Of a stretch of 21,103 nucleotides of DNA, positions 2,312-21,103 are shown piece after piece. The notes beneath the pieces were generated by a model. It did not search any database and was not told the origin of the DNA. It was given only the letters and a program-made list of their open reading frames with translations. Position 1 is the first letter of the stretch; every line of letters begins with the position of its first letter. The position numbers were made by a program, and so were the translations under genes. The DNA is from a virus (taxonomy: Duplodnaviria; Heunggongvirae; Uroviricota; Caudoviricetes): IMG/VR virus record IMGVR_UViG_2547132281_000013, positions 1-21,103 of that record, one strand, 5' to 3'.

Positions 2312-2470
2312 TTAATTTTGTTCTCTGGTTGCTACCTGTTTTATTGGCCTGATGCTGTCCAGGATAAGACGGCGACGCATGTTTGGCGCACCCCAACGGT
2401 AACCAGTCTTTTTGTCGTAGGATTCACAACGTCCGGCAACCCAGGACGTTTCAGTGGAATGTAATTTCAT
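2312..2470 (-). CDS. small hypothetical protein, 52 aa (below the ORF-track cutoff)
   Basis: Hand translation of the minus strand: MKLHSTETSWVAGRCESYDKKTGYRWGAPNMRRRLILDSIRPIKQVATREQN. It fills the gap between xis and the DUF551-like gene in the same leftward operon. Shine-Dalgarno is weak. Confidence 0.25.
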   Translation of the reverse strand: MKLHSTETSWVAGRCESYDKKTGYRWGAPNMRRRLILDSIRPIKQVATREQN

Positions 2471-2525
2471 CCGCTTTTCACCGTCTCGGGTGAGATAACA
2501 ATTCCTGTATGAGTTTTTATCACGC

Positions 2526-2888
2526 TCATTTCTTAGTCTCCGGTGCTTTCGGCATTACTGCCCAGTGAGTGATATTGACGTTTTCAAGGTCCCCGACCTG
2601 AAATGTCCACTGCCATTCTCCGGTTTCTTTTTGCCCCCATGTGTACCAGAGAGAACGCCAGCCAATCAGCCAGCCTTCTCCACTAGCATCAAATAACAGA
2701 ACACTTTCATTTGCTGGTGGCAGTTCAGCTGACACTGGTATTATTTTGTTTTCCAGTGCCGCACATTTAGCTTCAAGCGCGTTGAATTTACGTACCAGGT
2801 ACTCAGCATTTGTTTCGTTCACTTTCAGATCTCGCGGTACACATTTCCCGCGAAGAAACCCTTCCATTTCGAAAACATTCATGCGCAT
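2526..2888 (-). CDS. DUF551/Ea22-like prophage early protein
   Basis: 120-aa ORF with a Trp-rich C-terminus (GWRSLWYTWGQKETGEWQWTF...ITHWAVMP) resembling the DUF551 domain of lambdoid early-left proteins. Assigned from memory of the motif, not by search. Confidence 0.4.
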   Translation of the reverse strand: MRMNVFEMEGFLRGKCVPRDLKVNETNAEYLVRKFNALEAKCAALENKIIPVSAELPPANESVLLFDASGEGWLIGWRSLWYTWGQKETGEWQWTFQVGDLENVNITHWAVMPKAPETKK

Positions 2889-3414
2889 TTGCGTAACTCC
2901 GATAACTCGTTAAAACGTTCCATAAACATCCCGTAGGCCTGGCCCGGTGCCAGTGGAATCACGTTGAACATCTCTGTTGCCGGGATGCCTTCCAGTACAG
3001 GCCAGAAAGAGCCATCATCAAGCCCGAGATCGCGGCGTTCGGTTGCCAGCATGATGAGATCGGCATATTTCACAGGCGTGCTCATAACCGGGGTAACCCG
3101 TATTTCTCACGGATTACAGCGTCTATTTTTTCTTCCATCCGTTTATAGTCAGGAAGAAGGCGTTTCAGTGGCGCCGGGATGTCCTGGCAATACGCTTCTG
3201 TTGCATCATGCATTAACGCTTCAAAAGCAAATTCCTGCGGTACCAGTTGGCTGCAAAGCACCGCATGTTGGGCGACGCTGTAGAAATGTGAAAGATGTCC
3301 TGCAAAGCGACAGATATTTGAAAGAGAAACCGCGATATCGTTAATAACGATGTCGTCTTTATTTATCCTGTCATAATAAAAATGCTTCCCGGAAAAAGTT
3401 TTAATAAATGACAT
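2879..3414 (-). pseudogene. yfdR: HD-domain 5'-nucleotidase-like gene (YfdR-like) split by a frameshift at a homopolymer
   Basis: Two adjacent minus-strand ORFs: 3082-3414 (MSFIKTF...REKYGLPRL, with the His and HD motifs AGHLSH and LMHDATEAY) and 2879-3085 (MSTPVKYADL...). They overlap at the tract CCGGGG (plus 3088-3093). Inserting one G/C restores a single 178-aa frame (...GLPPVMSTPVKY...). The likely start is the ATG at 3414, which has GGAG 8 nt upstream. Confidence 0.6.
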
Positions 3415-3507
3415 TTTGTTCTCCACGTATATGCGCTGCACCGCGCTGAATTCTGGTAAAAGGAAGCCCTCACCATCCGGCGATTATTGAGTCAATTACG
3501 TTTCCAT

Positions 3508-3529
3508 AAATGCCCCCGCAGGGGCATTT
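3508..3529 (-). terminator. perfect 9-bp GC-rich hairpin between yfdQ-like and yfdR-like genes (attenuator or weak terminator)
   Basis: AAATGCCCC-CGCA-GGGGCATTT. The U-tract on the minus transcript is only partial (AUUUAU). Confidence 0.3.
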
Positions 3530-3541
3530 GCAGTAATGAAA

Positions 3542-4366
3542 TCAGGCGGTGAAAGTACCAATAAAGGTTTCTACTTTGCTGTCCTTGAATTTCTCAACAA
3601 GCAGATCACGAAATTCGTTAGCCATTTCTTCCTGCACTGCTTCCAGCTGAATAATGCGCAGAACCAGTACAGGACGATCGCCAGTGATAATGCTGAGGCG
3701 TAATTTAAACGGACGTTCTTTCAGGCCTTCAAACGGAACGCATTTAAATTCAAATGCCACAGGCATAATATCTTTGGTCTTCGCTTCGACAGACTCCATC
3801 AGGGAGCGTTTGCCGCTGAAGTCATTGTCTTCAAAATCAGCGGTCTGGTTTGCTTCAATCGTGATTTTACGGACTGCCGCAGCCGCTTTTGTTGCCTGAA
3901 TGGCATCACCATTAGCATCAAAGCCCACAAGGTAGTCGGCCCAGTCTTCGATCCATTCTGCCAGTGACTTCTGGGAGTTACGCTCGCCGTTAACAGACAA
4001 CAGAGCAGAGAACGGTGCTGTCTTTTTCAGTTTGAGAGTGGCAGTGTTATCTGCGTGACCTGGCTCATCAATAGTACCCAGGTTAAGCACACTGACGGCA
4101 CGCATATTATCGGCATCGATAAAGCAGCGGGTGCCTTCATCTGCAAGATCTTTAGAATAACGGGTAAAGTCATCGATGCTGGCAGTGGAAAGCGCACCAC
4201 GGAAACGGAAACGATTTAAATTAAATTTTTCCAGATCATGAATGCGGAAATTCTCAGGCAATGCCACAGCATCGGCACCAATCTTACTGATAATTTCATT
4301 AACACCCTGAGCAGAAATAAGGGCATGGATTTGATTAATTGCGGTTACGTCTAAGTTCTGAGACAT
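3542..4366 (-). CDS. yfdQ: YfdQ-like prophage protein (DUF2303 family)
   Basis: 274-aa ORF with GAGGA 7 nt upstream of the ATG. Length and sequence are recalled as matching CPS-53 YfdQ; assigned from memory. Confidence 0.55.
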
Positions 4367-4431
4367 AATAAGTCCTCACTATATAAAGATATTCAGTGAT
4401 GAGATAAATAATCAGTTTATTAAGAACGATA

Positions 4432-4794
4432 TTAACGACCTGCTGCGCGGAGTTTTCCGTCAGGTTCACCGGCAAGAGTCAGTAATTGTCCCTGGTCTTC
4501 CTGCAGAATAGTCAGGCGACCACCGCGATCGACATACATTGGCGTTTCGGTGGTGTCTTCTTCGGAAATTTTCCCGCGGTTAGTCGGGCGAACATATGAG
4601 AGTTTGTGTTTGATTTTCACACGGTTCTCATCAAACGGTTCGATTTCCAGATTGAGTGAGACCTTCCCTTTGGTTTTCGTGTTCATCACACCGGAAGCGA
4701 CTTCACTGAGAACTGCGCCGATTTTGGTTTCAAATACGCCGCCGTCCAGCTCCCCGATAAATGCCTGCACATCAGTACTGCGTTCGCTAGCCAT
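4432..4794 (-). CDS. yfdP: YfdP-like prophage protein
   Basis: Within ORF 4432-5112 the coding-like part begins at the internal ATG at 4794 (MASERSTDVQAFIGELDGG..., 120 aa), which has GAGGAG 9 nt upstream. The upstream extension is Arg/Cys-rich and not protein-like. Confidence 0.5.
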   Translation of the reverse strand: MASERSTDVQAFIGELDGGVFETKIGAVLSEVASGVMNTKTKGKVSLNLEIEPFDENRVKIKHKLSYVRPTNRGKISEEDTTETPMYVDRGGRLTILQEDQGQLLTLAGEPDGKLRAAGR

Positions 4795-4930
4795 TTTGCT
4801 GCTCCTCATCATATCGACCCTGCAAGGCCGATTAGTTTCTCCACAAAACAGAGAAGAACACCTGCGGTGGCAGCCGCCCGGATGGATTGGGTTATGAGCC
4901 CGTCGTCCGGTGATGCTCTTCTCTGTTTTG

Positions 4931-4977
4931 TAAAAAGAGCGGTACCAGCCGGAAGCAAGGGTACAAACTGGTACCGC
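4931..4977 (-). terminator. tL-like hairpin followed by a T-run on the minus strand
   Basis: 10-bp perfect inverted repeat GCGGTACCAG / CTGGTACCGC (4939-4948 and 4968-4977) with a 19-nt loop. On the minus transcript it is followed immediately by UCUUUUUA. Confidence 0.35.
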
Positions 4978-5194
4978 CAGGACTACACACAGCATAAAGT
5001 TGTGGTGCCGGGTGCCTCCCGGTGCCTGGCGAAGGTTGCACACCAGACGGGTGGGTATCCACAGAAGGTCGACTGTCAGCCTCAACCTTAACCCGCGTGC
5101 GCTGAGCCGCATTCACCACAACGCTAAGGATTCTCTCTGGTTGAAAATACTTAGCTGTTATGTGCCTGCTTTTAGCCACATCAGGCGAGGTGGA

Positions 5195-5248
5195 CCTGGT
5201 TATTCCCCAACAACAAGGATTCGGTTAATCTGGTTATCCCCAACAACG
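5195..5248 (+). repeat. imperfect direct repeat (CTGGTTAT[T]CCCCAACAAC, two copies) just upstream of ORF 5263
   Basis: Copies at about 5195-5215 and 5230-5248, ending 15 bp before the RBS (AAGGAAAAG) of the 144-aa ORF. Confidence 0.4.
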
Positions 5249-8828: not shown

Positions 8829-10400
8829 TTACTGAGAGCTCAGATCAACTTTCCAGGGCAACAGATCGCGTACCCGGTTTGCCGGCCAGTCCTGGATATG
8901 TTCAATGACGTAACGCAGCCACTTTTCTGGCTCCACATTGTTCAGACGGCATGTGCCGATCAGCGAGTACAACACCGCCGCATGTTCACCACCGCTGTCG
9001 GAACCCGCGAACATCCAGTTTTTCCGGCCTACGGCCACTCCCCGTAAGGCGTTCTCTGCGATGTTGTTGTCGATTTCCACCCAGCCATTACTGCAGTACA
9101 CGTTCAGTGCATCCCACTGTTTCAGCAGGTATGCGAACGCTTTTGCCGTATCTGAGTGACGCGACAGTGTTTTCATCTGTTGCTGTATCCAGTCATACAG
9201 TGACTGCATCAGTGGCGCGGCTCTGGCTTTTCTTGCCGCCAGACGCTGTTCTGCTGAACAGCCCCGGACCTCTGCCTCGATGGCATACAGTTCACCGATA
9301 CGCTGCAGGGCTTCCGTGGTGATGTCGGTGGGCGCTCTTGCATGCACATCGTGGATTTTTCTCCGGGCATGAGCCATACACGCGGCTTCCGTTATTCTGC
9401 CGGATTCGTATAACGCCCGGTAACCACCGTAAGCATCGGCCTGAAGCACACCGCTGTAACCGGCCAGGTGATTTTGTGGATGGATACCTTTCCGGTCCGG
9501 ACTGTACGCGAACCAGACCGCCGGGGGCATCTGTGAACCGGCGTTACGGTCATCACGGACGTAGACCCACAGCCGGGCTGTCCGGGTTTTACCGCTGCCC
9601 GGCTCCTGGACCGGGACGGGGATATCATCAGCATGGACTTTACCGGGCATCAGCACATACTGGCGCAGGACGTCATACAGCGGCTCCAGCAGTTCAGCAA
9701 CAGCACCTGTCCAGCGCCCCAGTGTGGCACGGCTCAGCTCCACTCCCTGACGACGGTATATTTCTGACTGGCGGTATAACGGCAGATGGTCTGCATATTT
9801 CCCGGTGACAACATGGGCCAGAAGCCCCGCTCCGGCATAACTGCGTGCAATGGGTTTTGAAGGTACTGGTGCCTGCACGATATGGTCGCACCGGCAACAG
9901 GCCTGTTTCGGACGTTGTGTTTCGATAACCTTAAAGGCGCTGCTGATAAGCTCCAGTTGCTCTGACACATCACATCCCAGAGAACTGAGTTCACCACCAC
10001 AGGCAGGACAGCATTCCTCTTCCGGCCGGATAACCCGGGTTTCACGGGGAAGTGAGGCCGGTAACGGTTTACGGGCTGAAGACTGGCGCAGGGCGGATGG
10101 CAGTACCGGGTCATATTGCTCACCCAGCGTTTCCGCCATTTCTTCCTGAAGTGCGCTGATTCGCTCCTGTGCTTCCTGTATCTGCCGTTCGGTTTTTGCA
10201 CGAAGTTTTTCTGAGCTTTTACCGAACTGCATGCGCTGCAGTTTCGCAACCAGCGCCTTCAGCCGGTTGATTTCGGAAGCATAAGCCGCCACCCGCTGTG
10301 AGAGCAGGCGGTTGTATTCAGCCATCTGGCGGATGGTGTCCTGTTGCGTCTGCAACAGTGCCCGCAGGCGGGCGTTCTCATGAGCAAGTGAGGTGTCCAT
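8829..10400 (-). CDS. tnpC: IS66-family transposase TnpC
   Basis: 523 aa with an N-terminal coiled-coil/leucine-zipper region, a CxxC...C zinc-finger-like motif (CCPACGGEL...) and a DDE-type core. Confidence 0.85.
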
Positions 10401-10419
10401 ATCCTCACTTTACAACGGG

Positions 10420-10767
10420 TTATATGCGGATTCCAGCGCGTTCCGTTCGTTTCGGGTGCTTCCAGTTGATACCTTCAAGAAGCATGGATAACTGAGCCGG
10501 AGTAAGGTGCACCTTGCCGTCACGGGTGACTGGCCAGACGAAGCGGCCCCGCTCCAGGCGTTTGGTGAAGAGGCACAGTCCGTCACTGTCAGCCCACAAC
10601 ACTTTTATCTGGTCACCCCGGCGTCCGCGGAAGATGAACAGGTGTCCGGAGAACGGGTCATCCTTCAGGACGTTCTGAACTTTTGATGCCAGGCCGTTAA
10701 AGCCATTTCGCATATCGGTGATACCTGCAACCAGCCAGATACGCGAACCTGCAGGGAGAGATATCAT
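10420..10767 (-). CDS. tnpB: IS66-family accessory protein TnpB
   Basis: 115 aa, typical IS66 Orf2 (LWADSDGLCLFTKRLERGRFVWP), translationally coupled to tnpA. Confidence 0.8.
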   Translation of the reverse strand: MISLPAGSRIWLVAGITDMRNGFNGLASKVQNVLKDDPFSGHLFIFRGRRGDQIKVLWADSDGLCLFTKRLERGRFVWPVTRDGKVHLTPAQLSMLLEGINWKHPKRTERAGIRI

Positions 10768-11444
10768 CAGTGGCTGCTCCCTTTTATTTCGCGGATAAGT
10801 GTCTGTAATAACGCCGGCGTCAGTTTACCTTTAAGCCTGAGAGTTCCGGCCGGCAGAACCAGCTCACAACACAGACTGTCGGACGGTGTATTTATCTGCT
10901 CTGGTTCCTGTGCGGGGGCCGGGATTTTATTATCCGGCTCCGGCGTTAACGTCACGGGAAGCAGTGCCGGCATATTTTTTCCGGAAGGCAGCAGGCCACC
11001 TTTCCGGTATTGATGGCGCCAGTTGAAGAGCAGGTTATCGTTGATTCCGTTTTCCCGGGCGATCTGCGCCACACAGGCTCCGGGCTGCAGTGACTGCTCC
11101 ACTAAGGCGATTTTAAACTCATAAGGGAAGTTGGGCCGCCGGGGACGTTTTTTTACCACGGGGGCTTCGGATATAACGGTGCTTTCAGGACGTACGACTG
11201 GTACCGTGGAAAATTGTCCGTAAAGGCAGGCATCAAGTTCCTGCTCCGACATGCCTGCGGGCAAAGGCCACGAAAGGCCAGCTCTCCGAAAGCGCACGAA
11301 CATACTACAAACTGTTGATTTTGGTACACCCAGGCGACGCCCGGCCACAACCCGGGGTAAATGTTCTTCAAAGTGAAGACGTAAAGCTTCAGTGATCCAG
11401 GTCCGGTGTTTCATACGATAGTGTCCATTAAAAATGATGGACAT
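10767..11444 (-). CDS. tnpA: IS66-family accessory protein TnpA (HTH), with an N-terminal extension
   Basis: The C-terminal part carries the IS66 OrfA HTH (PRRPNFPYEFKIALVEQSLQPGACVAQIARENGINDNLLFNWRHQYRKG). Start is uncertain between the ATGs at 11444 and 11414. Confidence 0.7.
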   Translation of the reverse strand: MSIIFNGHYRMKHRTWITEALRLHFEEHLPRVVAGRRLGVPKSTVCSMFVRFRRAGLSWPLPAGMSEQELDACLYGQFSTVPVVRPESTVISEAPVVKKRPRRPNFPYEFKIALVEQSLQPGACVAQIARENGINDNLLFNWRHQYRKGGLLPSGKNMPALLPVTLTPEPDNKIPAPAQEPEQINTPSDSLCCELVLPAGTLRLKGKLTPALLQTLIREIKGSSH

Positions 11445-17806: not shown

Positions 17807-19696
17807 TTAATCGTGTTTTGGCCATACTTTCAATGCAATTTCCCCCAACTTTTTACCCCGCTCCAGGATTTCATCCTCATCCCATTTATCCTTAACTATA
17901 AGTGGAATGTTCAGTCGTAGATTGGTGTGGACGATGAGAGCATCACGTTTTTTCAGAAATACAGCATTCTGAACAGAACGGTTTACGCTAAGGTTAAGCA
18001 AAGTTAGATTTCCCAACGTAGCTATCGCTTGTTGCCGTTTCCTTACCAGTAGCTGTTCAGGGGTAAGATCGGTTCCAGACAGAACAATTTGGTTCAATAC
18101 CGTAGCATCTGAATTTGTCACCATATGACCATTTTCGAGAGGCCAACAGGAAAACCAACTTTGAGGCATAAGATGATCGATATCGAGATTGGAAAGATTT
18201 GGACCATCAGGCTTCTCTGTCTTCACTTGGCGACAAAGTTCTCTTTCAAGTTCCGTTAACATTGAGCGCATTTTCGGTGCGTCGAGCCTGCCAGGATAAA
18301 GTGGAGCATTGATGCAAGCATTGAGAAATTCTGAGTCACCAGGCCAACGTGAGGCTTCGCCATTTAAGCTATTGAGGATATTACGTAACTCAACACTGGA
18401 AATTTCCGTTTTAGACAAGTGCCGCAATACATTCATAAATACATTGTTGTAATTCTTTGGCGTCAGGCCACATACGGCTCTTCGTACTACGTAGGAGACA
18501 AGATCATTATACATGGCTGCTTTCTCATCATCAGCGATGTTAGCTATCGAAATGAACAAAGCAAGCGGATAAAGTGTCGTCACATCATAGTCTGCGATGC
18601 GATATCCAAAGTGTGAGATGGGGGTTGTGCCAAAACCATCAACCAATTCTTTATATTGTGATGCATATTGTTTGAGGCGCTTTACTTGCAGATCTGCTCG
18701 TTGTGAAGACAAGTCCTTACTTACATAATCACGATACTCATTGTAAAGGCGAGACAGATCAATTTCACGCTGCCTTTCTGATTGCAATGTCGCATGTACT
18801 AGCCACTCCATGCGTGGTTTATTAATACGTCCACGGCGTTGCTTTTCCGACCAGTATTTATCTTCAAAGCTCTTCCACTCATTTTCATATAATTCAATAG
18901 CATTAATATTTTCATGCTCAGCGCACATAAAGATATAGTTGCGAATAAGATCCGTGGCATGAAGTTCCGCCCCTCGCCCATTTAATGTTTCAAAAATTAT
19001 TTGGGCATCATCTTCAGCTTCGAGAAATATGCTTACCAGTTTCAGATCTGTTAAGACAGCCTCAATTAGAGCTACAGCATTTTCTTGTGGTGAGTGGTTT
19101 TCTATTTTAATCCATTTTATAAAGGCTTCAGTAAAAAAACATAATGCTTCTAGTGATGGCGGGTGATTAAAATGCTTACGCAACGTACCATGCTGCGTGA
19201 AACTATCAGAGAATACGTCCCGGAGATCGTCAATATTTTCAACATTAAAACTTTGAATAAAATGAGTTTGATCCCGAAAAGTTGGCCATAGTTTGAAGCG
19301 TTCTACTTCTTTATTTCGCATTGTGTCTTCGTTTGAGTTTTTCAGGCAAGGCGAAATGAGAGCCTCTAAGCTGAAAAGATCCGTAGCACGTAATGCTAAT
19401 CGGATGGATGCCAGAACATATTGAAGAGTGGTCAATCGTTGCTGACCATCAATAATATGTATGGAATCTACACCTAATAATCCTTTTTTTGATTGAGGTT
19501 CCAGTACAACCGCACCAAGGAAATGGGGAGTTGGTTTTGTACCCGAGAGCCGGGATTGTGCTTTCTCTAGGATATCCTCCAGTAGAGCTGACCATTGGTC
19601 TTGCTGAGTCCATACATAGGCACGTTGATAGAATGGAACACAGTATTGTCGGCGGTCTTGAAAAAGTTGTTGGACAGTTAGCGTCTCGGATTTCAT
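17807..19696 (-). CDS. DUF262/DUF1524 protein, GmrSD-like candidate type IV (modification-dependent) restriction endonuclease
   Basis: N-terminal DUF262 hallmark ...SIHIIDGQQRLTTLQYVLASI... (DGQQR). C-terminal DUF1524-type His-Me finger motifs ...LDIDHLMPQSW... and ...LGNLTLLNLSVNRSVQN.... The likely start is the ATG at 19696 (MKSETLTVQQLF...) with AGGT upstream; the maximal ORF extends to 19756 but has no RBS. Confidence 0.75.
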   Translation of the reverse strand: MKSETLTVQQLFQDRRQYCVPFYQRAYVWTQQDQWSALLEDILEKAQSRLSGTKPTPHFLGAVVLEPQSKKGLLGVDSIHIIDGQQRLTTLQYVLASIRLALRATDLFSLEALISPCLKNSNEDTMRNKEVERFKLWPTFRDQTHFIQSFNVENIDDLRDVFSDSFTQHGTLRKHFNHPPSLEALCFFTEAFIKWIKIENHSPQENAVALIEAVLTDLKLVSIFLEAEDDAQIIFETLNGRGAELHATDLIRNYIFMCAEHENINAIELYENEWKSFEDKYWSEKQRRGRINKPRMEWLVHATLQSERQREIDLSRLYNEYRDYVSKDLSSQRADLQVKRLKQYASQYKELVDGFGTTPISHFGYRIADYDVTTLYPLALFISIANIADDEKAAMYNDLVSYVVRRAVCGLTPKNYNNVFMNVLRHLSKTEISSVELRNILNSLNGEASRWPGDSEFLNACINAPLYPGRLDAPKMRSMLTELERELCRQVKTEKPDGPNLSNLDIDHLMPQSWFSCWPLENGHMVTNSDATVLNQIVLSGTDLTPEQLLVRKRQQAIATLGNLTLLNLSVNRSVQNAVFLKKRDALIVHTNLRLNIPLIVKDKWDEDEILERGKKLGEIALKVWPKHD

Positions 19697-19874
19697 GGTA
19701 TACCTGTAAGCGACATTGTACAAAAGTGAGGAGTTAATCTGATTTAGAACAATCATTTTATTTTGCTATGATACAACGTATTTGTTACCGGTTAAGCAAA
19801 AAACGCGTCTGAACGCTGACGTTTTAGGGCTTTACTGGTTATTCTTTCTTATCTCTTCATCATTGGATTTGCCC

Positions 19875-20780
19875 CTATATTTCCAGACATCTGTTATCAC
19901 TTAACCCATTACAAGCCCGCTGCCGCAGATATTCCCGTGGCGAGCGATAACCCAGCGCACTATGCGGATGCCATTCGTTATAATGCTCGAACGCCTCTGC
20001 AAGGTTCTTTGCTGCCGTTAACCCGTCTGGTTTGGGCATGATACTGATGTAGTCACGCTTTATCGTTTTCACGAAGCTCTCTGCTATTCCGTTACTCTCC
20101 GGACTCCGCACCGCCGTGTTCTTCGGTTCAAGTCCCAACATCCGGGCGAACTGGCGTGTTTCATTAGCCCGGTAGCATGAACCATTATCCGTCAGCCACT
20201 CCACTGGAGACGACGGAAGATCGTTGCCGAAGCGGCGTTCCACCGCTCCCAGCATGACGTCCTGTACTGTTTCACTGTTGAAGCCGCCGGTAGTGACCGC
20301 CCAGTGCAGTGCCTCACGATCACAGCAGTCCAGCGCGAACGTGACACGCAGTCTCTCTCCGTTATCACAGCAGAACTCGAACCCGTCAGAGCACCATCGC
20401 TGATTGCTTTCTTTCACGGCCACTCTGCCTGTATGTGCCCGTTTCGATGGCGGTACAGCAGGTTTTCGCTCAAGCAACAGCGCATTCTGGCGCATGATCC
20501 GGTAAACACGTTTGGCATTGATCGCAGGCATACCATCAAGTTCTGCCTGTCTGCGAAGCAGCGCCCATACCCGACGATAACCATACGTGGGCAGCTCTCC
20601 GATAACATGGTGTATACGGAGAAGCACATCCGTATCATCAGTGTGACGACTGCGGCGGCCATCCATCCAGTCATCGGTTCGTCTGAGAATGACGTGCAAC
20701 TGCGCACGCGACACCCGGAGACAACGGCTGACTAAGCTTACTCCCCATCCCCGGGCAATAAGGGCGCGTGCGCTATCCAC
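19875..20780 (-). CDS. insD: IS2 transposase InsD (OrfB, DDE integrase domain)
   Basis: 301 aa, GTG-initiated frame [28 protein letters not shown]... recalled as IS2 InsD. In vivo it is expressed mainly as an InsCD fusion by -1 frameshifting. Confidence 0.85.
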
Positions 20781-21103
20781 TTTTTTGCCCGTCCATATTC
20801 AACGGCTTCTTTGAGGAGTTCATTTTCCATCGTTTTCTTGCCGAGCAGGCGCTGGAGTTCTTTAATCTGCTTCATGGCGGCAGCAAGTTCAGAGGCAGGA
20901 ACAACCTGTTCTCCGGCGGCGACAGCAGTAAGACTTCCTTCCTGGTATTGCTTACGCCAGAGAAATAACTGGCTGGCTGCTACACCATGTTGCCGGGCAA
21001 CGAGGGAGACCGTCATCCCCGGTTCAAAGCTCTGCTGAACAATTGCGATCTTTTCCTGTGTGGTACGCCGTCTGCGTTTCTCCGGCCCTAAGACATCAAT
21101 CAT
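20738..21103 (-). CDS. insC: IS2 InsC (OrfA, HTH)
   Basis: 121 aa, [56 protein letters not shown].... Confidence 0.85.
20780..20786 (-). promoter_or_regulatory. programmed -1 ribosomal frameshift heptamer A AAA AAG (insC to insD)
   Basis: Minus-strand GCA AAA AAG TGG in the insC frame; a -1 slip reads AAA AAA GTG GAT AGC..., which is the insD frame. Confidence 0.7.

Follow-up and report, generated by a model that had tools for sequence, protein, structure and literature searches.

The DNA analysed here, referred to as the window, is the whole 21,103-nucleotide stretch of the virus record IMGVR_UViG_2547132281_000013 (Caudoviricetes), and corresponds to a degraded SfV/e14-like prophage adjoining tRNA-Pro. 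Its genes run in the order integrase, small ORFs, a yfdS-like gene of the DUF551 type, yfdR, yfdQ and yfdP, followed by the repressor region. The upstream partner of yfdR in the yfdQRS(T) module, yfdQ (3542..4366, minus strand), is intact; it matches Pfam DUF2303 with E = 3e-92 and is labelled "YfdQ family protein" by PGAP in genomes identical at this locus. Downstream lies the yfdS-like gene (2526..2888, minus strand), recognised from the ORF list, Pfam and annotation, which is also intact. There is a 10-nt overlap between its start and the yfdR stop, and its score against Pfam DUF551 is 21.5 bits, just under the cut-off of 22. The synteny yfdP-yfdQ-yfdR-yfdS, with the DUF2303 gene upstream and the DUF551-like gene downstream of yfdR, is therefore present in the window.

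Between these two genes yfdR is divided over two minus-strand reading frames, as defined by the ORF list and by alignment to intact alleles. The 5′ fragment (3082..3414) is listed as an ORF running 3441/3414→3082; counted from the ATG at 3414 it has 110 codons, followed by the stop TGA at 3084-3082. Its product ends ...REKYGLPRL*, the final two residues (RL) being out of frame. The 3′ fragment (2879..3085) comprises 68 codons plus a stop (2881-2879), starts at the native Met111 codon and encodes a product beginning MSTPVKYADL.... In the tetranucleotide ATGA at 3082..3085, the early TGA that results from the frameshift and the ATG of the native Met111 overlap. A sequence-only reading of the locus had described a split HD-domain gene with a stop overlapping the second start, and the two frames bear this out.

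The site of the defect lies a few bases upstream of this overlap. On the plus strand the sequence reads CC at 3088-3089 and then GGGG at 3090-3093, which is the CCGGGG tract to which the junction had been assigned; the four G residues (3090..3093) are the C4 run of the coding strand, which has five C in intact alleles. When one C is added to the coding-strand run, a single frame of 537 nt and 178 aa is obtained (...REKYGLPPVMSTPVKY...), just as had been predicted for one added G. The only residues altered by the frameshift are PV, which become RL, and the two ORFs together span all 178 positions. As it stands, the window gene is 536 nt long and stops after codon 110. Because it does not have the single uninterrupted 537-nt frame of YfdR, the window copy is a pseudogene of the YfdR family and not a functional member.

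The repaired protein shows high identity to K-12 YfdR over its full length (175 of 178 residues), and PGAP names the identical locus yfdR. The K-12 MG1655 gene (b2361), which lies in the cryptic prophage CPS-53 and is annotated as a 5′-deoxynucleotidase, is 537 nt long and encodes 178 aa, so the length given for it in the earlier reading was correct. K-12 has the same gene order as the window, yfdP-yfdQ-yfdR-DUF551 (yfdS-like). The two loci differ in that the window copy is one base short and split into 110 + 68 aa, and in their prophages: the window element is SfV/e14-like and beside tRNA-Pro, whereas K-12 yfdR belongs to CPS-53, beside argW. Furthermore, the K-12 junction reads CCT CCT and has no homopolymer, in contrast to the C4 of the window.

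Residues 19-175 of the repaired protein align continuously with the single-chain HD protein Atu1052 (PDB 2GZ4) with E = 6e-14. This alignment spans the junction, where GLPPV in repaired YfdR is matched by GLPPH in Atu1052. Since the repaired protein aligns as one chain across the break, we judge that the two ORFs are not a chance juxtaposition. Alignment to 2GZ4 (VAQH / HDA / KxAD) assigns the H...HD...D motif to H50 and H69-D70 in the 5′ ORF and to D119 in the 3′ ORF, and these residues are the predicted metal ligands, with Asp119 (KYAD) as the putative fourth ligand of the motif. The expected His and HD motifs are indeed on the N-terminal part, which is the higher-coordinate ORF of this minus-strand gene. 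All residues of the motif are present in the window, but they are divided over two ORFs and do not lie on one polypeptide.

Family profiles recognise the protein poorly. The 5′ ORF alone gave sub-threshold matches to Pfam YfbR-like/HD_3 over residues 40-103, and the family profile search with the 3′ ORF alone gave no match. Even the repaired protein scores below the cut-offs for Pfam YfbR-like (PF12917; 24.3 bits against 25.9) and for the NCBIfam YfbR equivalog (NF003009; 19.9 bits against 122), and because of this YfdR is best regarded as a distant HD relative rather than a YfbR equivalog. Repaired YfdR has the H...HD...D pattern in common with the HD-domain phosphohydrolases Atu1052 (PDB 2GZ4) and YfbR (PF12917), and the relationship is remote. 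The best-documented property of K-12 YfdR is that this HD-domain protein binds domain I of DnaA (Noguchi & Katayama 2016, PMC4776307). The same study reports that overexpression of yfdQRS or yfdQRT inhibits initiation and that YfdR has far lower affinities for nucleotides than YfbR does; DnaA binding and inhibition of initiation are known for K-12 YfdR only (PMC4776307).

Intact alleles establish what was lost. A 33-mer carrying the C5GG junction (TTACCCCCGGTTATG) has matches in 805 of 5,426 complete E. coli genomes, with 795 records at 100%, and the intact junction, CCGTGAGAAATACGGGTTACCCCCGGTTATGAG, is the window junction plus exactly one C. The proposal of a single-base indel in a G/C homopolymer is thereby confirmed. 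The closest such intact gene examined, from MLI107, differs from window yfdR by six substitutions and the one-base indel; 3′ of the indel, the sole in-gene difference between the two is at 3075. By comparison, the C4 32-mer occurs in 12 of the 5,426 complete genomes, about 2,970 of which bear yfdR. Phage records give a similar picture: 49 matched, and all 15 of those listed are one base longer than the window over the matched span, pointing to an intact yfdR in these 15. Homologues were thus found as one gene across the junction in K-12, in the 15 listed phage records of the 49 and in 2GZ4, and they are not naturally two genes at this point.

Two more elaborate origins were considered and set aside. 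A complex indel plus substitution lacking a simple intact parent was suggested by the closest intact allele of VE-V11-M (TTACCCCCAGTTATG) and by the failure of a repaired 72-mer to find an exact match; the 33-mer refutes it, an unrelated SNP in the flank being the reason why the 72-mer has no exact match. Once a simple C5 parent was known, there was no longer any need to invoke a quasi-palindrome or a templated mutation.

An alternative to a dead gene is a functional split gene, in which ribosomes would re-initiate at Met111 within the ATGA and two translationally coupled fragments would reassemble into a working HD domain or DnaA binder. The exact overlap of stop and start means that the 3′ fragment could be translated, and with both ORFs covering all 178 positions and only PV→RL changed, little of the protein would be missing. 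The break also falls at a 4-residue gap of YfdR relative to Atu1052, which suggests a loop, and the 3′ ORF shows no further disruption in the window lineage. A working split protein could moreover account for the occurrence of the C4 allele in several prophages and on several haplotype backgrounds. Against this, the allele is restricted to 12 of the approximately 2,970 yfdR-bearing genomes, the context is a decaying prophage, and a search 5-12 nt upstream of the 3′ ORF ATG found no AGGAG-like Shine-Dalgarno sequence. Intact alleles share the polymorphisms seen among C4 alleles; Q159 in the 3′ fragment, for instance, occurs in 13 genomes with intact yfdR, and there is hence no sign of selection following the split. 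For the same reason we rejected an earlier idea that H159Q reflects relaxed selection after the frameshift. Taken together, these observations make a functional split gene improbable. If it were true, the split protein would provide a modest case in nature of an HD domain complemented from fragments.

The sequence-only reading had left open whether the frameshift is a genuine pseudogenisation or an error. Single-base changes in homopolymers are a classic type of sequencing error, and the change here is of one base within a homopolymer, so a sequencing or assembly mistake in a genome that truly has G5 and an intact yfdR has to be considered. The other C4 carrier SCU-306, in which yfdR shows a second homopolymer deletion and neighbouring genes are frameshifted, lends this reading some support. 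However, ten of the 12 C4 carriers among the 5,426, all of them complete RefSeq genomes, match the 701-bp allele of the window at 100% identity, and these ten come from unrelated projects, with sources that include human blood in Finland, APEC O78:H4 from chickens, a pig in China, a fox, food in Canada, and Viet Nam. Furthermore, in a collection of 15 billion proteins (NCBI, ENA, Logan) the exact 110-aa product is found on 193 contigs and the exact 68-aa product on 186, among them draft assemblies and the ENA metagenome contig k141_12087, which has a MEGAHIT-style name. No genome combines the window's 72-bp flanks with C5; the best match of the repaired 72-mer is 98.6%, with none full-length without a mismatch, so that the same mistake would need to have been made in each member of the lineage and on each platform. 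An error is in our estimate very unlikely. Because the truncated products recur on about 190 contigs, draft and metagenome assemblies included, we conclude with high confidence that the yfdR frameshift is a real, clonally inherited pseudogene mutation. Of the two possibilities left open, genuine pseudogenisation thus stands and error is disfavoured.

The frameshift is already known in the sense that public annotation flags the gene as a pseudogene. The PGAP label "yfdR, 5'-deoxynucleotidase, frameshifted" appears in all 3-4 annotations examined of the 10 genomes, and also in SCU-306 and EC09. The RefSeq/PGAP loci labelled "yfdR, frameshifted" in MS20649, APEC E19057/E123, EC130, CFIAFB20180540 and others are identical to the window over the 701 bp and lie in the same remnant with the same flanks. 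With respect to MS20649, CFIAFB20180540 and similar genomes there is no difference inside the gene, and the window prophage differs elsewhere, in the position of ISCro1, in a deletion and in having more tail genes.

Programmed ribosomal frameshifting or transcriptional slippage that restores full-length YfdR can be dismissed as very unlikely. The two neighbouring, overlapping ORFs could be joined by a -1 shift, but the 5′ ORF contains no slippery heptamer of the X XXY YYZ form that marks programmed -1 frameshift genes, CCC-C would favour a +1 shift leading to the third frame and not to the 3′ ORF, transcriptional slippage is not known to occur on a run as short as four C, and the overwhelming majority of homologues are in one frame.

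Comparison with a sister lineage (GZM7, APEC O78, ACN001 and others), in which this prophage remnant contains a different, intact yfdR allele, places the inherited mutation in a wider exchange of sequence. Between the window and this lineage, as represented by GZM7, we found 43 substitutions and the indel, all within 2845-4423, and none in 1-2844 or 4424-5219. Because the differences are confined in this way, the broken yfdR is taken to lie inside a 1.6-kb recombination patch (2845..4423) that replaced yfdQ too and covers the 5′ end of the DUF551 gene, yfdR and yfdQ.

The remainder of the element is mosaic and decayed. Its relatives carry truncated Q, methyltransferase, PerC and tail genes, two other frameshifted small genes, and IS2 and ISCro1; internal prophage deletions differ between strains of one lineage, and any one genome in the collection covers at most 71% of the window. 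The prophage is interrupted at about 8829-11444 by an IS66-family element, ISCro1 (tnpA, tnpB and a 523-aa transposase). Its position differs from that in the genomes with the identical yfdR, among which MS20649 and CFIAFB20180540 have no annotated ISCro1. A copy of IS2 occupies the right end of the window (about 19875-21103). Compared with CFIAFB20180540, the window is without the replication/Q/lysis block but has more baseplate and tail genes, so that one lineage holds different states of prophage decay. Towards the far end of the remnant, annotation of identical loci places a 649-aa DUF262 domain protein at 17807-19756 (minus strand), possibly a defence-type cargo.

Two further features of the same region were noted. 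At 2312-2529 (minus strand) there is a second small pseudogene, labelled "hypothetical protein, frameshifted" by PGAP in both the window and sister lineages, which has two extra bases (TC) at 2494-2495 relative to the intact 216-nt gene of MLI107. Upstream of yfdP, at about 4810-5120 (minus strand), a 311-nt "hypothetical protein, frameshifted" is annotated in every prophage context examined, including a nearly complete prophage. An apparent frameshift kept across such diverse elements might reflect a mis-modelled gene, a recoding site or a non-coding element. An Rfam scan of this feature gave no match, and Rfam and tRNA scans of the whole window found nothing.

The C4 junction is also found in other prophage contexts, namely in CP121673.1, a contig of GCA_974496785.1, SCU-306 and EC09. 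It lies on at least three local flanking haplotypes, each matching an intact C5GG background. This distribution would be explained either by recurrent slippage at the C5 run or by an older allele that has been shuffled by very short recombination tracts. Persistence of the C4 allele while recombining would be slightly unexpected if the gene were purely dead. In SCU-306 (NZ_CP053231.1), yfdR, at 2200-2722 of the locus analysed, has an A6→A5 loss in addition to C5→C4; the neighbouring genes are frameshifted, and this locus may represent more advanced decay or homopolymer errors in the assembly.

Nine of the ten carriers of the identical allele (e.g. NZ_CP082087.1) have a second or third place that matches the yfdR junction region, and none of these places has a C4 junction. 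Because of these additional matches, none of them C4, a further copy of yfdR, probably intact, is likely to be present in another prophage of those genomes.

A simple course of events best accounts for the pseudogene. One C:G pair was lost from the C5/G5 run of an intact allele, most simply by replication slippage; this is the sole G/C run of four or more in yfdR and is presumably its most slippage-prone G:C site. The shifted frame meets a TGA two codons later, so that at most a 110-aa N-terminal fragment would be made, without the last conserved Asp of the HD motif. Since the break parts His50 and His69-Asp70 from Asp119, the HD phosphohydrolase is most likely inactive in the window allele, and the N-terminal fragment, without D119 and about 40% of the fold, would be expected to be inactive in itself. 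The yfdQ-yfdR-yfdS module would probably be deprived of its central DnaA-binding component, and the overlapping DUF551 gene may be less strongly coupled to it in translation.

The break in yfdR is one of several decay steps in a defective prophage. The loss of the gene was probably neutral, which is consistent with the deletion of yfdQRST in K-12, for which no effect on hydroxyurea resistance or on regulation of initiation was detected (PMC4776307). The C4 allele with identical 701-bp flanks provides a modest lineage marker, being present in 10 of the 5,426 complete genomes; APEC O78:H4 or other poultry isolates account for several of these. As a case of prophage gene decay through homopolymer slippage the finding is routine and matters little in itself, and it serves as a reminder that the replication-inhibiting yfdQRS(T) module is dispensable.
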